The position numbers and the translations under genes are program-made. Positions 24,931 through 31,869 of a stretch of DNA of 60,715 bases are shown piece after piece. Position 1 is the stretch's first letter. Each line of letters opens with the position of its first letter. Origin of the DNA: a virus; the IMG/VR virus record IMGVR_UViG_3300045988_118650; one strand, written 5' to 3'. Below the pieces are notes generated by a model. The model was not told the origin of the DNA and made no database searches. It worked only from the letters and a program-made list of their open reading frames with translations.

Positions 24931-26352
24931 TTACTCCTTTCTTCCTGCTCCCTTTGGCGGGTGAGCTTTCGAGGGCTTGACGGGCAGGCACAGCAGCAAA
25001 ATGCAGTCGGCTTCGTCGGGGGACGGCCGGCCGCGTGCTTTGACGTCCTTTTTGCTCTCGATCTTGACCTTGCTTTTCTCCGTGATGCCGTATTTACGGG
25101 TGGAGAGCTGCGCGGCCAGATCTGCGTCGTCGGGCAGGATAAGTTCAACGGGCTTTTCGTTGCCGTCGTCGTCAATGGTTTGGAGTAGCTTTTTGACAAT
25201 GGCCATCATGTAGGTGGTCGTGTCGTGATAATACTTGTGCCGGATGATCTGGCCAAACTTGACCGGGACGATGGAGAGCCACCAGAAACGGTCGGGGTCG
25301 CTGCGCTTGATCTGGCGCAAGTTGTCGGTTACGCCACCGCCGACGCCGCCGTCGTCGATCTTGACGGGTATCGCGGTTTCGAGGTGGTATTTATCAACAA
25401 GCCTGCATCCCAGCAGGGCTATTTCGTGGGCGGTTCGCACCGTGTCCTGTCCCTGTATCTTCTGGTGAAAATAGACCTTTTCATCGACCTTGTAGCCGAT
25501 GACGGTTTTATCGTCACCAAATCGGGCGACGTCGCAGCCGATATGAACAGACAGCGGCTTTTCCGGCTCTTTCCAGTCGGTGTTGATGGACTTCTCGACC
25601 ATGGACAGCGGGATAAAGACGTCCTTCTCGGATTTCGGGAAGTCCCCGGCTACGCGGACGCGGAACACGTCTGAATCCTCGCCGTACATGGTTCTGATTC
25701 TGTCGATGTACTCCTGCGACACGCGGGGGCTGTTTCGGTCGTCAACGTGGATGGTGTGATATTCTGCCCGGTTCTTGTGGAAAGCGTCGTAAAAGAAGCC
25801 CTGCAACTGTGTGGGGTTCCCGCACATCAGGAGCCGCGCTCCCTCTGTGGATAGGGCACCCAGAACAGGCTCAAAGACCTTGTCGTCCACGCCGGATGCT
25901 TCGTCGATGATAAACAGCAGGTTCTCGGAGTGAAATCCTTGCAGGGCGTCCGGGGTGTTCGATGTTCGGGCGACGGCAAACCATTCCTCTTTGGCTCCTG
26001 TCATATAGACGCGCTCCTGCGTCCATGTGATCTCCCGTTGCAATGCCGGGTTGCTGCGCAGCCACTTGGACACCTCGGCCCAGAGGATGTCATATAGCTG
26101 GTGCTGTGTGGGGGCTGTGCAGGGGATTTTCGGGTAAGGGCGGGTGCAGATAAACCAGATAATAGCCCACGCCTGCACGGCGCTCTTTCCGATGCCGTGC
26201 CCAGAACGAACGGCCGTCATGGGGTTCTCGGCAAGGCTCCGCAGGATGTTGGCCTGCTCCTCGTCCGGCTTGGCTCCTATGATGTCCTCGACGAACTCGA
26301 CCGGATGGTCTGCATAGAAAAGCACGGCGTCACTTGTCATCTGCTTCACCAT
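24931..26352 (-). CDS. terL: Terminase large subunit
   Basis: Walker A GHGIGKS, Walker B LLFIIDEASG, and a C-terminal nuclease-like half. Confidence 0.92.
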   Translation of the reverse strand: MVKQMTSDAVLFYADHPVEFVEDIIGAKPDEEQANILRSLAENPMTAVRSGHGIGKSAVQAWAIIWFICTRPYPKIPCTAPTQHQLYDILWAEVSKWLRSNPALQREITWTQERVYMTGAKEEWFAVARTSNTPDALQGFHSENLLFIIDEASGVDDKVFEPVLGALSTEGARLLMCGNPTQLQGFFYDAFHKNRAEYHTIHVDDRNSPRVSQEYIDRIRTMYGEDSDVFRVRVAGDFPKSEKDVFIPLSMVEKSINTDWKEPEKPLSVHIGCDVARFGDDKTVIGYKVDEKVYFHQKIQGQDTVRTAHEIALLGCRLVDKYHLETAIPVKIDDGGVGGGVTDNLRQIKRSDPDRFWWLSIVPVKFGQIIRHKYYHDTTTYMMAIVKKLLQTIDDDGNEKPVELILPDDADLAAQLSTRKYGITEKSKVKIESKKDVKARGRPSPDEADCILLLCLPVKPSKAHPPKGAGRKE

Positions 26353-26830
26353 CCATTCTGCGCTGATAGGCTTCCTCGATGGTCTGCATCAGGCTGGGGG
26401 TGGCATTCGCGTCCTCCTGCGGGGCTTTTTCCAGTACGAGGTTGTTTTCGACTTCAAGGGCCAGCTTCAGCATCTCCTTGATATCGCGGGGCGTCATATC
26501 CTCCGGGGCCAAAAGGTTCAGGGCATTCAGTGCCTTTAGTTGGAGTTGGGCGGCTATTTGCAGATGGGTTTTGCGGATGTTGGCCGCTTCTTTGGCTGCG
26601 CTTTTGCGGGCTTCTTCGTCGATGCTGTTATCGTAAGCCCGGCAGCGGGCGGCCCAGTTGTGGCCTTTGTGCCAGCGGTCGATTAGACTTCGATTCTTGC
26701 CGCATTCCTTTACCACCGCCGACACGGTGCGGTTTTTGCCCATATCCCGGTATAAAGAGAATGCAGCATAGGCCGGGTCGCTCTCTTTGGGCTGCTGCTC
26801 CCAGACCTTTGTTTTGACCTGTTTTTCCAT
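26330..26830 (-). CDS. terS: Terminase small subunit (HTH)
   Basis: 166 aa upstream of and overlapping terL. Segment AAFSLYRDMGKNRTVSAVVKECGKNRSLIDRW is HTH-like. Confidence 0.7.
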   Translation of the reverse strand: MEKQVKTKVWEQQPKESDPAYAAFSLYRDMGKNRTVSAVVKECGKNRSLIDRWHKGHNWAARCRAYDNSIDEEARKSAAKEAANIRKTHLQIAAQLQLKALNALNLLAPEDMTPRDIKEMLKLALEVENNLVLEKAPQEDANATPSLMQTIEEAYQRRMDGEADDK

Positions 26831-26871: not shown

Positions 26872-27447
26872 TCATGCCGATGCGGTGACGGTATCGACGA
26901 TGATCTTGACGATGGCATCCTCGCCGTGTTCCTTGATGTAGGCTTTCAAGGGTTTCTCGTCGGCTGCATCAAAGTCAAGGCTCAGCAGGAAGTTATCTTC
27001 CAGATCCTCTTCAGGTTCTTCGTCGGTTTCGGTCACGTCGTCAAAGTAGGATTTGAGTTCATCCCTCAAAACGTCGATTTCCGGGAGCGTGAATCCTGTG
27101 TCGGCTGCTTCTTCGCCCAGCTCGGTGAGGATGTCGGTCAACTTCTTGTCGTCCCATTCACCCGTTATCTTGTTCAAGGCGATGTTGAGCTCCTTTTCCT
27201 TGATGTCGTCCAGATCGACGACGGAAACAGTGACTTCGGTTTCGCCCTGTGCTTCAAGGACGGTCAAACGCTGGTGGCCGGAAACAACGGTATTTGTGCG
27301 ACGGTTCCAAACGATAGGCTGCACCAGACCGTGGCGCTTCAAGCTGCGCTCGATGGCCTGATATTCTTCGTCCTCCGGCTTGAGATCGACGCGGGGGTTA
27401 TAGGCAGCGCGGTTGATGTCCGCGATGCGCTTCACTTCAAATTCCAT
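26872..27447 (-). CDS. ParB N-terminal (ParB/Srx-fold nuclease-like) domain protein 1
   Basis: RIADINRAAYNPRVDL..ERSLKRHGLVQPIVWN..VVSGHQRLTVLEAQG. Confidence 0.8.
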   Translation of the reverse strand: MEFEVKRIADINRAAYNPRVDLKPEDEEYQAIERSLKRHGLVQPIVWNRRTNTVVSGHQRLTVLEAQGETEVTVSVVDLDDIKEKELNIALNKITGEWDDKKLTDILTELGEEAADTGFTLPEIDVLRDELKSYFDDVTETDEEPEEDLEDNFLLSLDFDAADEKPLKAYIKEHGEDAIVKIIVDTVTASA

Positions 27448-27450
27448 GCG

Positions 27451-28068
27451 TTAGTCCTCCCCTTTGATGCTTTCCATGATGGCAGCGGAGAGGGCGGCGC
27501 GGGCGTTGTCCTGTTCGAGGTATGCGTCCACTGCGCCCTTGTACTGCTCCGGGATGGAAAAAATCATCGAGAATGTGGCGTCGGCAGGGGGTTCTTCTTC
27601 CTGCTCGTTGTCCGGCTGCGGTTCAGGCGGTGTGTAGTCGAGAATATCGGCCAGACGGTTCTGGTACTGGTCGATAAGGCCTTGCAGCTCATAGTCTTCA
27701 AAGCCTGTGAGGGATACGTCGCCGCGTTCGGAAAGCTCTTTCATGAGGGGTGCCAGCTTTTCATTATCCCAGCGGCCTTTTGCACGGTTGAGGATGATGT
27801 TCAGCTTCTTTTCCTCTCTGAGGGTTTCGTTTATGACGACAACGTCGGTTTCGGTCTCCCCGATATCGCACAAAGCCTTGATTCTCTGGTGGCCGCCCAC
27901 GACGTGCCCGGTCTTTTCGTTCCAGATGACGGGTTCGACCATGCCAAAGGTTTCAAGGCTCTGCTTTATCTTGATGTATGCGGGGTCGTCCGGCTGTAAG
28001 TCCTTGCGCGGGTTATAGCTGGCAGGTTTAAGATCTGCAAGCCGCATTCTCCTGATATTCATTGCCAT
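27451..28068 (-). CDS. ParB N-terminal domain protein 2 (paralogue of 26872..27447)
   Basis: RLADLKPASYNPRKDL..KQSLETFGMVEPVIWN..VVGGHQRIKALCDIG. Confidence 0.8.
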   Translation of the reverse strand: MAMNIRRMRLADLKPASYNPRKDLQPDDPAYIKIKQSLETFGMVEPVIWNEKTGHVVGGHQRIKALCDIGETETDVVVINETLREEKKLNIILNRAKGRWDNEKLAPLMKELSERGDVSLTGFEDYELQGLIDQYQNRLADILDYTPPEPQPDNEQEEEPPADATFSMIFSIPEQYKGAVDAYLEQDNARAALSAAIMESIKGED

Positions 28069-28738
28069 GTTTCGTTACCTCCCGGCGGGTGAAGAAATAG
28101 AAGAACGGCGTATCTGCCAGAGCAAGGCAGGCTTTCAGCAGGTACTGACCGATCATCATGCCGATAAGGTTCATGCGGCCCTCCGGGGTGAATGCCCAGC
28201 CAAGGCCCAGACCGAAACTGATAAAGGCGTAAATAAACGTGTCGATGATCTGGCTTGTGCAGGTGGAGCCATTATTCCAGATCCAGCGGCCGCCTTTGAC
28301 GTCGCCATGCTTGCGGATGTAAGCATCACGGATTTTGTGGAATACAAAGACGTCCCAGCTCTGGGATGCGTAATAGGCGCACAGGCTGCCGATGACAAAT
28401 ACCCAGTTCTGGCCTAAAAGCGTCTGATATGCGCCATCAATAACAGGGTCTACAGCCTTGCACCAGCCTGTGAGGATAATTGCGATGGTTGCGAAAATCT
28501 GGCCCACAAAGCCAAAGAAAACCATGTTCTGCGCTTTCTTGCGTCCCCAGATTTCGCCGACGATGTCGGTGCACAGGAACGTGACGGCGTAGGTGATCGC
28601 GCCGCCGGATGTGGACAGGGTGATGGGGCCAAGGTGGATGCCGGTGGTGATGGTGCGGCTGCCGACGACGTTTGCGATGACGATGGAGATCACAAACAAG
28701 GTCAGCAGGATAGAGTAGTTCTTGTCGGTCTTTTTCAT
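28028..28738 (-). CDS. yhhQ: YhhQ/DUF165-family queuosine-precursor (preQ0/preQ1) transporter
   Basis: Multi-TM protein with GGAITYAVTFLCTDIVGEIWG, SQSWDVFVFHKIR and STCTSQIIDTFIYAFISFG. ATG at 28736-28738. Confidence 0.8.
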   Translation of the reverse strand: MKKTDKNYSILLTLFVISIVIANVVGSRTITTGIHLGPITLSTSGGAITYAVTFLCTDIVGEIWGRKKAQNMVFFGFVGQIFATIAIILTGWCKAVDPVIDGAYQTLLGQNWVFVIGSLCAYYASQSWDVFVFHKIRDAYIRKHGDVKGGRWIWNNGSTCTSQIIDTFIYAFISFGLGLGWAFTPEGRMNLIGMMIGQYLLKACLALADTPFFYFFTRREVTKHGNEYQENAACRS

Positions 28739-28764
28739 TTTGTCCTCCTGTTGGTAGGTTTTAT

Positions 28765-29658
28765 TTAGTCCTGCGGGCCGCAGGTGCGGGCGTACAGGTC
28801 TTTGCAGATGGTCGCGCAAAGGCTGGCGTTTGTGGTGTATACCAGCTTTTTGCCTGTCGGTTCGATGCCACGGGCCAGCATCATGGCTTTTATCTGTGCT
28901 TCGCGCTCGTTGTACAGGCTGCGCTTGAAATTGCGGATGTGTTCTTTTCGGTAGCCGTCGTCAATATAGCCGTACTTGACGCCGGAAAGCCAGCTCGTGC
29001 TATCTGCGGATGTGCAGAAGTTGTTTTCCCGGATGATTTTGAAGTCGGTACAGCCCAGCAGGTGGATATCGATTTCAGGCTTCTTGTTCTTGATGTAGTG
29101 CGTGATGTAGCGTATATCCCGCTTGTGGGTCGCAGGCTTTACAATGCGCCACTCCGGGACGCTGACGGCGATGTAGTCGGAAAATTCAATCAGGCGGTCA
29201 AGGCCCTTTTGTCCGTCCTCAAAGTGAAAGACGTTGATCTGCTTGCTCTCCGGCATCATGTCCTTCATGCGCTGCCTGAAATACCATGCTTCATCAACGC
29301 CAAGGACTTTCTGACAGTCGATCTCGACAATGGATGCGGTGATGTGGTTCTGTTTGACAAAGGCCATGAGCTTGTCCTGCCATTCGGTCAGGGTGGAAAT
29401 GGTCTGCTTCTGTCCCTTGCCAGCGCCGAACATCAGAGTGAAAAGGCCTGAATCCTGAATGACGTGTTTCTGTTGCCGCTGCTGCTCCAGAATAATATCA
29501 TCTTCCGGCAGCCTGAAATCGTCGTCAGGCTTTTTGCCGACGATATAGTTGTAGCAGCTGTACAGGCGATAGTGGGTATCTGCGGCAACGAGTGCGCAAA
29601 AGTTTTCTTTACTGCCGTCACTTCCGGCAAAATGAATCTTGACGTTACGCCCTAACAT
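28765..29658 (-). CDS. dpdA: DpdA-like tRNA-guanine-transglycosylase-family DNA transglycosylase
   Basis: TGT-like motifs QDSGLFTLMFG (compare DSGGFQ) and IHLLGCTD. ATG at 29656-29658 follows GGAGGTGG. Neighbours are queD and yhhQ. Confidence 0.7.
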   Translation of the reverse strand: MLGRNVKIHFAGSDGSKENFCALVAADTHYRLYSCYNYIVGKKPDDDFRLPEDDIILEQQRQQKHVIQDSGLFTLMFGAGKGQKQTISTLTEWQDKLMAFVKQNHITASIVEIDCQKVLGVDEAWYFRQRMKDMMPESKQINVFHFEDGQKGLDRLIEFSDYIAVSVPEWRIVKPATHKRDIRYITHYIKNKKPEIDIHLLGCTDFKIIRENNFCTSADSTSWLSGVKYGYIDDGYRKEHIRNFKRSLYNEREAQIKAMMLARGIEPTGKKLVYTTNASLCATICKDLYARTCGPQD

Positions 29659-29980
29659 AGACGCCACCTCCCTGCCCGTCTTCCTGTACGGTGACTTCCG
29701 CACAGCCGAAAGTATCGGCAATCAGTTTTGCGATCATCTCGCAGGACATAGAGCCAAAGGCCATGTGCCCGTTTTCGTCGCCGAAACGGTCGGACAGAAA
29801 ATGGTGGATGCGGTTCTGCGTCTGGATGATCTCCAAATCGCGGTTGTCATGTGTGACAGGGATTTTTGCGGTAATGCCGAACACATGGCGGTGGACGCTG
29901 CGCAGATATGCCAGCTCCGCCGGGGCGTCCGGCCAGTTATGGAAACCAGGAACGTCCACTTTGCAAATGATGTAGTACAC
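29645..29980 (-). CDS. queD: QueD-like 6-carboxytetrahydropterin synthase (PTPS fold)
   Basis: 111 aa. VHRHVF (compare HGHSF), SCEMIAKLI and VTVQEDGQGGGVY resemble the E. coli QueD layout. GTG start follows GAAAGGAGG. Confidence 0.55.
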   Translation of the reverse strand: MYYIICKVDVPGFHNWPDAPAELAYLRSVHRHVFGITAKIPVTHDNRDLEIIQTQNRIHHFLSDRFGDENGHMAFGSMSCEMIAKLIADTFGCAEVTVQEDGQGGGVYVRA

Positions 29981-30196: not shown

Positions 30197-30226
30197 CTCA
30201 TTTATACTCATTTATACTCATTTGTG
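30197..30226. repeat. Tandem 10-bp repeat (ctcatttata x2 + ctcatttgtg)
   Basis: Read directly. It overlaps the last codons and the stop of the regulator gene. Confidence 0.6.
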
Positions 30227-30692
30227 GTACATTTTCTGTGCTTTCTAGGGTCAAAATGGCTTTTTTATGGATTCTAAGGACGGCTTCAATGTATTTTCGG
30301 TCATCGTTTCCGTACAGTGTGAGGGCTACGGCGTTCCATTTCTTGGGTCTGCAGGTGTCTTCGCACTCTGCGTCCATATATCGCAAGCGCAGGACTTCCC
30401 TTTGCAGGCCGTCCGGGATGGCATCGACCATGCGTTCCAGCTCTTCCATTTTGTCGGAGTTGGCTTTCAAAAGGGGCAGGATCTTTTTTTCATACTCGAT
30501 GTACCGCTCCACGGCAGCTTCCATCTTGTGGCTGTTGCCCGCTGTGTGTGCGCTGCCGTCACTTTCCGGGATACCCGTCAGTCCCCCGGCGGCGTCCCGC
30601 ATATCGTTCAAGCGGGAAAGCCGATTTTTATTCTCCATAGCCATTGGCAGGTATTCGGAAAGACGGTCTTTCGCTGACTGCTGCACTTGCAA
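30198..30692 (-). CDS. Late-gene transcriptional regulator, sigma-70 region-4-like HTH (RinA/ArpU/DUF1492-like)
   Basis: DGLQREVLRLRYMDAE...WNAVALTLYGNDDRKYIEAVLRIHKKAI. It is the last gene before the packaging block. A start at GTG 30686 is more likely than TTG 30692. Confidence 0.6.
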   Translation of the reverse strand: MQVQQSAKDRLSEYLPMAMENKNRLSRLNDMRDAAGGLTGIPESDGSAHTAGNSHKMEAAVERYIEYEKKILPLLKANSDKMEELERMVDAIPDGLQREVLRLRYMDAECEDTCRPKKWNAVALTLYGNDDRKYIEAVLRIHKKAILTLESTENVPQMSINEYK

Positions 30693-30803
30693 TTCCTCCG
30701 CTCAAATGGTATAATAACGGTTGTCCGGCGCCGTTCATCTTTAGACCGTTTGAGGTTTGAGGGTGGGCGGCTCTTTTTATGCCCAAAAGCTGCCCGGTGG
30801 TGG

Positions 30804-31303: not shown

Positions 31304-31453
31304 TCAAAGATCGCCGAAAGTCTCGGCTTCTTGTTCGCGCCTGATAAGTTCATCCTCGTGGGTGTTGGGCCGGTCGTGCTTTTTGTGGGACTTCCCGCTC
31401 ATGCGGAAAAAGTAGCCCATGGCAAATGCTAAGATGTAGTATAAAATCTTCAT
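31304..31453 (-). CDS. Small membrane peptide (49 aa)
   Basis: Own translation MKILYYILAFAMGYFFRMSGKSHKK.... ATGA overlap with the rusA stop. Confidence 0.4.
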   Translation of the reverse strand: MKILYYILAFAMGYFFRMSGKSHKKHDRPNTHEDELIRREQEAETFGDL

Positions 31454-31869
31454 GGTTCCAGCTCGCTCAATCTGACAAGCACTTGAGGGGTCTCCCCGTA
31501 TCGCTTTTCGACCAGCAGGCGGCAGACCTGCGCGTCGTCGTCGTAGGCGATTTTATTCAGAGAGTCCAAAACGATTTTCGCCAGATTATCAACGTCTGGC
31601 TTCTTCTGGCAAAGGGTCTTGATGTCAAGCATCAAGGCTCTTTTCTTTTTTGAGGTGGATTTCGGGACAGATGAATAGCTGACGATTTCGGCCTGTATGG
31701 GGCCGGAAAGCCGCAATCCTCTGGCGGCCTGCTGATAATAGAGCCGCACCAGATTCTCATACATGACCGTTTCCTTTGGGGTGTAGGTGCTGGCGTGGCC
31801 TGCGATCTGCACGGTGCGCGGTCTGGCCTTGCCTTTAGGCTCGCCGGGGACGGCAAAGGAAATAATCAT
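31450..31869 (-). CDS. rusA: RusA-family Holliday junction resolvase
   Basis: PGEPKGKARPR..YTPKET..KPDVDNLAKIVLDSLNKIAYDDDAQV. Confidence 0.88.
   Translation of the reverse strand: MIISFAVPGEPKGKARPRTVQIAGHASTYTPKETVMYENLVRLYYQQAARGLRLSGPIQAEIVSYSSVPKSTSKKKRALMLDIKTLCQKKPDVDNLAKIVLDSLNKIAYDDDAQVCRLLVEKRYGETPQVLVRLSELEP

Follow-up and report, generated by a model that had tools for sequence, protein, structure and literature searches.

The DpdA transglycosylase of Salmonella Montevideo inserts preQ0 into double-stranded DNA (dsDNA) only when DpdB and ATP are also present (PMC10164549). DpdB is a homodimeric ParB-fold ATPase with a DGQQR motif; it is stimulated by DNA and by DpdA, and the two proteins form no stable complex (PMC10164549). 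It is present in 92% of dpdA genomes. The activity of DpdA1 and DpdA2 by themselves in E. coli has led to phage DpdAs being regarded as stand-alone enzymes, and in full-text literature searches we found no report of a ParB partner for a phage DpdA. Here we describe two small ParB-like genes, ParB-A and ParB-B, that lie beside the genes of a divergent DpdA cassette in a 60,715-nucleotide stretch of viral DNA (IMG/VR record IMGVR_UViG_3300045988_118650; this whole stretch is called the window below), and we conclude that the pair are probably helper subunits of the phage DpdA.

Small ParB proteins are also associated with phage 5mYOX thymine dioxygenases, one subclass of which requires them, on dsDNA only (O'Toole et al., PNAS 2026; PMC13229309). 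In the 5mYOX-ParB, a nucleotide-binding domain is followed by a helix-helix segment, then by an unstructured linker of ~50 aa and a C-terminal dimerisation domain; it lacks a DNA-binding domain and shows cognate specificity. DpdA, tandem pairs and heterodimers go unmentioned in that study (PMC13229309). Phage fusions of ParB to N6/N4 methyltransferases have been surveyed (PMC12704722), and a 2025 survey of the ParB-CTPase fold, which covers phage methylase fusions and the binding of CTP, ATP and GTP, makes no mention of DpdB, transglycosylases or terminases.

The original prediction, made from the letters of the window alone, described two adjacent paralogous genes of 191 and 205 aa with a ParB signature, placed after yhhQ with overlapping ends and ahead of terS, with neither gene fused to a methylase. 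Our annotation agrees. The genes exist as described and carry YNPR, EPVIWN or QPIVWN, and GGHQR or SGHQR; neither has a methylase domain in searches with Pfam and PADLOC profiles, and the coordinates confirm their position. The pair and the DpdA gene are:

27451-28068, minus strand: ParB-A, a standalone ParB N-terminal-domain protein, 205 aa
26872-27447, minus strand: ParB-B, a paralogue of ParB-A, 191 aa (BLASTP, PHROG, Pfam)
28765-29721, minus strand: DpdA-like DNA guanine transglycosylase of a divergent subfamily (phrog_887, 3e-21)

We collected DpdA loci by scanning with the window DpdA (46 viral-contig loci) and with a DpdA alignment (the best 80 of 218 viral-contig matches). Bacterial genomes added 26 DpdA loci and, with the window and earlier loci, the total came to 162. 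These fall into 55 clusters at 90% identity, of which 5 are cut off by a contig end and 50 are evaluable. A ParB-N hidden Markov model (HMM) built from the ParB-A/ParB-B family was run over all open reading frames (ORFs) of the loci. Every evaluable cluster (50/50) has one or two small ParB-N ORFs of about 160-300 aa on the strand of DpdA and no more than 2.5 kb from it. The co-occurrence with phage dpdA that the original prediction had suggested looking for is therefore found across this set, and also in mycobacteriophage Rosebush, as described below. In the first 83 loci, we counted 97 ParB ORFs per 356 kb within 2.5 kb of DpdA versus 6 per 795 kb farther away, and the 6 distant ones are all one 517-524-aa fusion in one lineage. 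Representative DpdA-linked ParBs exceed the Pfam ParB_N gathering score or match PHROG ParB families. The usual place of the ParB gene is directly before DpdL or DpdA, mostly abutting or overlapping their start, and in loci without DpdL the stop of ParB often extends past the start of DpdA (distances of -3 to -42 nt). These loci span Bacillota, Bacteroidota and Spirochaetota, with hosts that include Faecalibacterium, Oscillospiraceae, Veillonella, Anaerovoracaceae, Prevotella, Phocaeicola, Porphyromonadaceae, Flavobacteriales, Cruoricaptor and Treponema.

A typical full cassette runs ParB, DpdL, DpdA, QueD, QueE and FolE, with QueC or a YhhQ-like gene in some, followed by the genes for the small (terS) and large (terL) terminase subunits. 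The gene flank upstream of ParB varies by locus, and the terminases are of differing families (Terminase_3, Terminase_6 and the window type). Three loci (L103, L146 and L147) share DpdL-DpdA-YhhQ-terS-terL-portal-MuF with the window, at about 57-71% identity for DpdA, YhhQ, terL and portal and about 40% for DpdL and terS. Their single ParB is divergent (GETR) and lies upstream of the cassette, with none downstream. Phages of the Roos type have one close ParB (GHQR) upstream, and the window type has the A/B pair downstream. The position of ParB varies across DpdA loci, but its presence does not.

Tandem ParB pairs have at least 3 independent origins, in lineages distinguished by the motifs GHQR (the window, L012, L148 and L004), GNQR (L154) and GNMR (L161, L164 and L165, in Bacteroidota). 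In each tandem lineage, the two members are closer to each other than to any member of another lineage. Such repeated duplication of a dimeric ParB is what would be expected from a shift from homodimer to heterodimer.

A ParB gene also lies beside dpdA in Rosebush, whose DNA contains dPreQ0 at about 28% of G (PMC6884629). The Rosebush genome starts with gp1, gp2 (DpdA), QueC, gp4, gp5, FolE and the terminase. The gp1 protein is ParB-like (phrog_723 at 3.9e-65, plus phrog_620 and phrog_498, families that the window pair also matches) and is matched by our ParB-N HMM at 1.6e-13. Similarity between the Rosebush and window DpdAs is undetectable by BLASTP, so ParB lies next to DpdA in two clades of that enzyme that have diverged very far.

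We favour, with somewhat better than even confidence, a reading in which a nucleotide-binding dimer of ParB-A and ParB-B helps DpdA to act on duplex phage DNA. In this scheme, YhhQ would import a 7-deazaguanine precursor, DpdL may turn it into 7-deazaguanine, and DpdA would swap guanine in phage DNA for 7-deazaguanine. The ParB pair would dimerise through its nucleotide-binding and small C-terminal domains, around or on dsDNA, and the dimerised pair would give DpdA productive access to the duplex. ParB pairs of this kind would serve post-replicative DNA base-modifying enzymes, with DpdA as the client in this prophage. We infer heterodimer formation, nucleotide binding and an effect on DpdA because there are precedents in DpdB for bacterial DpdA and in the small ParB activators of phage thymine dioxygenases, because the ParB-DpdA link persists while the upstream flank and the terminase family change, and because of the 50/50 DpdA linkage, the Rosebush layout, the repeated tandem pairs, and three invariant residues (R21, R62 and N94).

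These residues emerge from sequence comparison. ParB-A and ParB-B are 41% identical over 153 residues (E = 5e-37, BLASTP). Against Pfam ParB_N they score 26.1 and 19.7 bits, respectively, just under the gathering score of 26.3; both match PHROG 620 ('ParB-like partition protein') and the N-terminus of PHROG 498 ('DNA methyltransferase') at 1e-38 to 1e-39, and phmmer gives a match to B. subtilis ParB 6SDK at 6e-5. In a 22-member alignment of both paralogue types, N19, P20, R21, G59, H60, Q61, R62, N94, G98, W100 and T121-G122-F123 are invariant. ParB-B keeps the N-P-R, G-H-Q-R, L-N and W-D/T-G-F motifs, and its orthologues in other phages are recognisable as a distinct 'B' type. Compared with B. 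subtilis and H. pylori ParB, N19-P-R21 aligns with the QPR motif, H60-Q61-R62 with the E-R-R of GERR, and N94 with the Asn of ENxQR. By this alignment, R21, R62 and N94 are the equivalents of the phosphate-binding residues of CTPase ParBs, kept in both paralogues, and the Gln and Glu implicated in hydrolysis are replaced by Asn and His. Of the GxxR/ENxxR nucleotide-binding box named in the original prediction, GxxR is present as such and ENxxR takes the form LNxx(K/R), with the Asn kept.

The AlphaFold2 (AF2) model of ParB-A has a mean predicted local distance difference test (pLDDT) score of 72. It contains a nucleotide-binding domain at residues 1-95 (block-mean pLDDT about 78-89), two or three helices at residues 102-143, a disordered acidic linker at about residues 138-159 (pLDDT < 50), and a C-terminal domain of ~40-45 residues at about 165-203 (pLDDT about 85). 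Foldseek matches in the PDB, at E = 1e-6 to 1e-3, are first to CTPase-type ParBs, namely Noc 7NFU (1e-6), pNOB8 ParB and ParB-CDP 6SDK, and also Caulobacter ParB, Myxococcus ParB, KorB and PadC, and next to sulfiredoxin (Srx 6KY4), SerK, SbnI and Atu1540 (2HWJ). In BFVD, many viral proteins in the range of about 200-240 aa share the fold, as do methylase fusions. By predicted structure and profile matches, ParB-A and ParB-B are members of the ParB/Srx (ParB-CTPase) fold superfamily with a GxxR motif.

The C-terminal domain modelled alone by AF2 is an unpaired N-terminal stretch followed by two helices. A PDB profile search for a ribbon-helix-helix gave CopG at E = 0.053, which is not significant, and Foldseek gave nothing. 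The unit resembles a strand-helix-helix, and its identity as a ribbon-helix-helix is a guess. The C-terminal module varies among DpdA-linked ParBs. Those of L120, L126 and L154 end in a zinc-ribbon-like segment (CPHCGKEFEI or CPHCGKKF), and others end in a strand-helix-helix unit, e.g., FKIILEYTEDDYNSVLEAFKKHSGSREEIVARLL, that is ribbon-helix-helix in appearance.

The canonical ParB, Noc and KorB CTPase clamps are the best structural matches, and the window pair keeps their Arg/Arg/Asn phosphate-binding equivalents. Databases label its relatives 'ParB-like partition protein', so the pair could be genuine partition ParBs that maintain the phage as a plasmid-prophage. We regard this as extremely improbable and reject a partition identity. 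Unlike the clamps, the pair has no ParA partner (there is no parA gene, and its neighbours are yhhQ and terS) and no HTH/parS module, and the hydrolysis Glu is a His. The ParA-activating LG(R/K)GL motif is absent from both sequences. TIGR00180 gives 16.3 bits for ParB-B, far under the cut-off of 58.45, and no match for ParB-A. A full helix-turn-helix (HTH) DNA-binding domain is absent from the ParB-A AF2 model, in which ~40 helical residues follow the nucleotide-binding domain, and there are no parS-like repeats in 24.5-31.5 kb of the window. The cassette also occurs in chromosomal contexts of bacterial genomes.

One close comparison is with DpdB, of which the original prediction saw the pair as a possible phage counterpart. 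The likeness consists of the ParB/Srx fold, a GxxR-type nucleotide motif and a gene beside dpdA, and the structural comparison proposed at the time came out positive, as the nearest structures largely coincide (Noc 7NFU, pNOB8 ParB, Srx 6KY4, Atu1540 2HWJ, PadC and 6SDK). The profile comparison did not: the DGQQR motif and the SspE-like C-domain are absent. DpdB has about 390 aa, is DndB/SspE-like and has a large helical C-domain that forms a DNA tunnel, whereas the window proteins have 191 and 205 aa, GHQR, a tiny C-terminal domain and two paralogues. We reject orthology with DpdB and read the proteins as its analogues: against the PADLOC DpdB profile, ParB-A reaches E = 0.034 (10.9 bits, 47 residues around GxxR), ParB-B has no match, and 0/10 other DpdA-linked ParBs match. 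The idea of a DpdB counterpart thus survives in its linkage (50/50 clusters and Rosebush) and its fold, but not in profile similarity, nor in exclusive association with dpdA, given that the pair also occurs without that gene.

The 5mYOX-associated ParB resembles the pair in form: it is a small phage ParB with a matching domain layout beside a post-replicative DNA base-modifying enzyme, and this match in architecture supports the helper-subunit reading. It differs in that its client is an Fe/2OG dioxygenase, not a transglycosylase, and in that a single ParB was described.

In sequence, the pair is closest to the N-terminal ParB domain that phages carry fused to N6/N4 methyltransferases, which also supports an accessory role next to a DNA-modifying enzyme. 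The PADLOC MTase_II profile (PDLC03229) matches at E = 2e-30 and 1.5e-34, over profile positions about 7-157 of 436, and tblastn matches to ParB-methylase genes have 44-56% identity over about 130 residues among the best phage matches listed. These fusions resemble the window pair in lying upstream of terminase genes, often as two tandem copies. In contrast, the window proteins have an acidic linker and a C-terminal domain of roughly 45 aa, and the modifying enzyme is a separate gene; ParB-A and ParB-B have no Pfam N6_N4 methylase match, and their MTase_II matches stop at about position 157. Standalone homologues of 190-210 aa number in the hundreds, with one 90% cluster in 945 blocks of the assembly collection. 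Among the best 80 ParB relatives in viral contigs, 53 loci have fusions of at least about 350 aa, often two in tandem, 15 have a small tandem pair without dpdA, and 9 carry dpdA.

The fusions are often tandem paralogues (L034-L037, L039 and L042, with matches about 1.3 kb apart and ORFs of 432 and 417 aa), which parallels the tandem small ParBs. We also found an A/B chimera, a single 194-aa gene in which an A-type nucleotide-binding domain passes into a B-type C-terminal half near the LN motif, at L015 10001-10582 and L100 11640-12224 (contig IMGVR_UViG_3300045988_088646; protein P0026). The phage that carries it otherwise shares 91-97% identity with the window cassette. Apparently the ParB pair can collapse to one gene via recombination between the paralogues.

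Several observations weigh against the helper-subunit reading, and the first comes from phages without dpdA. The A/B pair is common in dpdA-less phages with the same packaging module (terL 66-73% identical), their status being judged from flanks of ±6-10 kb around the pair and from the absence of their contigs from the best 80 of 218 DpdA matches. Because the pair persists in phages that lack dpdA, DpdA cannot be the sole basis of its function. Between ParB-B and terS, these phages encode a radical-SAM protein (339-352 aa, phrog_13321, weak DUF1848 similarity), usually followed by a pyridoxal phosphate (PLP)-dependent enzyme (281-295 aa, PALP, phrog_3650). The set could be an uncharacterised DNA-modification cassette, with a putative action on DNA. 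PHROG annotation of the other neighbours in these phages gave a MazG-like pyrophosphohydrolase, unknowns, and nothing else. Examples are at L004 7160-8179, L016 11129-13029 and L183 4636-6497, all from abundant gut phages. We accordingly reject the idea that the pair is always tied to dpdA, as many phages have the radical-SAM and PLP genes instead.

Other cargos accompany related ParBs. L186 3046-6116 encodes a PAPS-reductase-like protein (262 aa), a ParB (208 aa), a second PAPS-reductase-like protein (390 aa), another ParB (187 aa), terS and terL, an alternation that we take to recall the IbrA/IbrB-type and DndC-type ParB pairings. Within the same terL family, L182 has two small ParBs plus a 519-aa ParB fusion, and L190 has a ParB-methylase fusion. 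The ParB-pair phages of this terL family carry some candidate modification cargo, and their terL relative L188 has neither a ParB nor a recognisable modification gene; this contrast supports the accessory role. From these gene contents, we read the pair as a likely exchangeable accessory for different DNA-modifying cargos.

Conservation without dpdA would also fit a DpdA-independent role in host conflict or regulation, for example in anti-defence, as an NTPase that depletes nucleotides, or as a DndB-like negative regulator that limits or times modification. According to the literature, DndB is a ParB-fold regulator and not a catalytic partner, and the orphan ParB-fold proteins of mobile elements are a diverse group whose ligands are CTP, ATP or GTP. 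We judge a role of this kind quite unlikely: it leaves the 50/50 adjacency to one enzyme clade, the start/stop overlaps and the methylase fusions unexplained, and both precedents studied experimentally (DpdB and 5mYOX-ParB) are activators.

A second difficulty for the helper-subunit reading is position. The cassettes all sit immediately upstream of terminase genes, at a site known as a hotspot of accessory genes, so part of the ParB-DpdA adjacency could be positional. The DpdA loci are also related by descent, which makes 50/50 an overestimate of how many independent events there were. If the ParBs were dispensable, our finding would shrink to a positional regularity of phage genome architecture.

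Position is also the starting point for seeing the pair as part of the late or packaging module (a pac-site factor, terminase accessory, nuclease or late-gene regulator), with the deazaguanine cassette inserted into a hotspot that it shares with the pair, between the late regulator and terS. In the window, terS and terL follow the pair directly, the dpdA-less sister phages keep it with the same terS-terL-portal-MuF module, and the large terminase that adjoins the L012 pair is a different one, for which a small-subunit gene was not called separately. Phage 5mYOX clusters often have ParBs and terminases as neighbours (PMC13229309), and some ParB/Srx proteins are described in the literature as nicking DNA. 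Most DpdA loci, however, have the ParB on the far side of the cassette, 2-7 genes from terS and often overlapping the DpdA or DpdL start, and the ParB-DpdA link is constant while the terminase families vary. A close terL relative, L188, has no ParB. We found no nuclease domain with Pfam and no parS- or pac-like repeated site nearby, and the closest homologues are fused to methylases and not to terminase or nuclease domains. A packaging role is therefore unlikely in our view. The original prediction had raised a coupling of the pair to packaging and had called a pac-site or nuclease role equally possible, and we found nothing in support of either.

Further difficulties come from the known biochemistry and from other phages. 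The catalytic Glu of GERR is a His in the ParB pair, so nucleotide hydrolysis may be absent, and nucleotide-site mutants of 5mYOX-ParB stayed active (PMC13229309). Phage 9g DpdA1 is active alone in E. coli, and we found no ParB-N ORF in the 50 kb of phage 9g that we examined, nor a ParB in the regions around DpdL/DpdA of phiST, MA9V-3 and ACP17.

Between DpdL and DpdA3, phiST (CGPG_00066, L138 6290-6769) and MA9V-3 (L139 6333-6803) encode a ~157-aa P-loop protein with a Walker-A motif (GEICSGK), which may be an alternative NTPase partner of that DpdA subfamily. The DpdL paper reported that dpdL and dpdA together failed to give 7-deazaguanine in DNA (dDG) in E. coli and suggested missing factors, and the P-loop protein could be relevant to that failed reconstitution.

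Beyond the window, we consider a wider reading more tentatively, as possible but short of even odds: small ParB-N homodimers or A/B heterodimers would be obligate nucleotide-gated 'DNA-access' subunits of a whole clade of phage DpdAs and, more broadly, a generic exchangeable cofactor of post-replicative phage DNA-modifying enzymes. Its clients may include methylases, as fusions, and, as separate genes, DpdA, thymine dioxygenases, and the radical-SAM/PLP and PAPS-reductase-like (IbrA/DndC-like) modules. This would join bacterial DpdB, the phage 5mYOX-ParB activators and the ParB-methylase fusions into one testable principle and, if true, undiscovered DNA modifications could be flagged by a ParB-N gene that sits, upstream of the terminase, beside an unknown enzyme. 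For the large, mostly uncultured DpdA clade of gut, rumen and environmental phages, the ParB-N neighbour is a concrete candidate cofactor.

The remaining genes around the pair in the window are, in order of transcription:

31450-31869, minus strand: RusA-like gene (57% BLAST match to the Pfam RusA-annotated gene of L012)
30198-30692, minus strand: regulator (phrog_36)
29645-29980, minus strand: DpdL-like T-fold protein (phrog_17812; signature L-RSV-HRH-V-F)
28028-28819, minus strand: YhhQ/Vut_1-family queuosine-precursor transporter (Vut_1 7e-42 in Pfam; TIGR00697 1.2e-32)
26330-26830, minus strand: terS, terminase small subunit (phrog_6299, 4e-26)
24931-26352, minus strand: terL, terminase large subunit, given for context only (Pfam and PHROG)
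downstream of terL, minus strand: portal and MuF genes (matches to the Phage_portal and Phage_Mu_F genes, by Pfam, of related loci)

The full order, all on the minus strand, is RusA-like, regulator, DpdL-like, DpdA, YhhQ, ParB-A, ParB-B, terS, terL, portal and MuF. The 3' end of the yhhQ ORF (28028) overlaps the ParB-A start (28068) by 41 nt, the gap between ParB-A and ParB-B is 3 nt, and that between ParB-B and terS is 41 nt. ParB-A, ParB-B and terS are each preceded by a GGAGG-type Shine-Dalgarno sequence. The likely true start of yhhQ is an ATG near 28741, and that of DpdA is M22, near 29658. A promoter and terminator scan found no convincing minus-strand terminator in the block from DpdL to terS, which is consistent with co-transcription without proving it. 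As the first gene past the ParB pair, terS is the downstream boundary and lies outside the proposed unit. Just upstream of the phrog_36 regulator gene, there is an intergenic hairpin at 30730-30771 with an 18-bp stem and 8 GC pairs; it may serve as a terminator or regulatory structure where the early and late regions meet.

The 5.1-kb region had zero megablast matches in 50,697 phage records. A Faecalibacterium metagenome-assembled genome holds a near-identical cassette with 91-97% protein identity, so the host of the prophage is probably Faecalibacterium. The window DpdA has no Pfam TGT match, motif-level similarity to 9g DpdA1 (E = 0.004 over 41 residues) and no significant BLASTP similarity to phiST DpdA3. 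Its sole strong match in the phage records is in Faecalibacterium phage Roos (60% identity), and three other records give weak matches of 22-29% identity. It has 218 relatives in viral metagenome contigs, and relatives adjoin QueD/QueE/FolE/QueC/YhhQ.

In the annotated block around the window cassette, we saw no folE, queD or queE, and only the YhhQ-type transporter is there. The gene at 29645-29980 had been called queD in the original prediction, an assignment we revise: it carries the DpdL signature LxxxHRHxF (AYLRSVHRHVF) and not the QueD signature CxxxHGH, and it is 37% identical to phiST CGPG_00067 (8e-20) and 31% to ACP17 gp125. DpdL is a proposed 7-carboxy-7-deazaguanine (CDG) decarboxylase, so the prophage may install dDG and not preQ0. 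In an Oscillospiraceae prophage (L148 2163-5752), the genes are DpdA, QueC, YhhQ, ParB-A and ParB-B, without DpdL. One lineage thus combines this transporter family with QueC and another combines it with DpdL, a hint that what is imported may be CDG and not preQ0.

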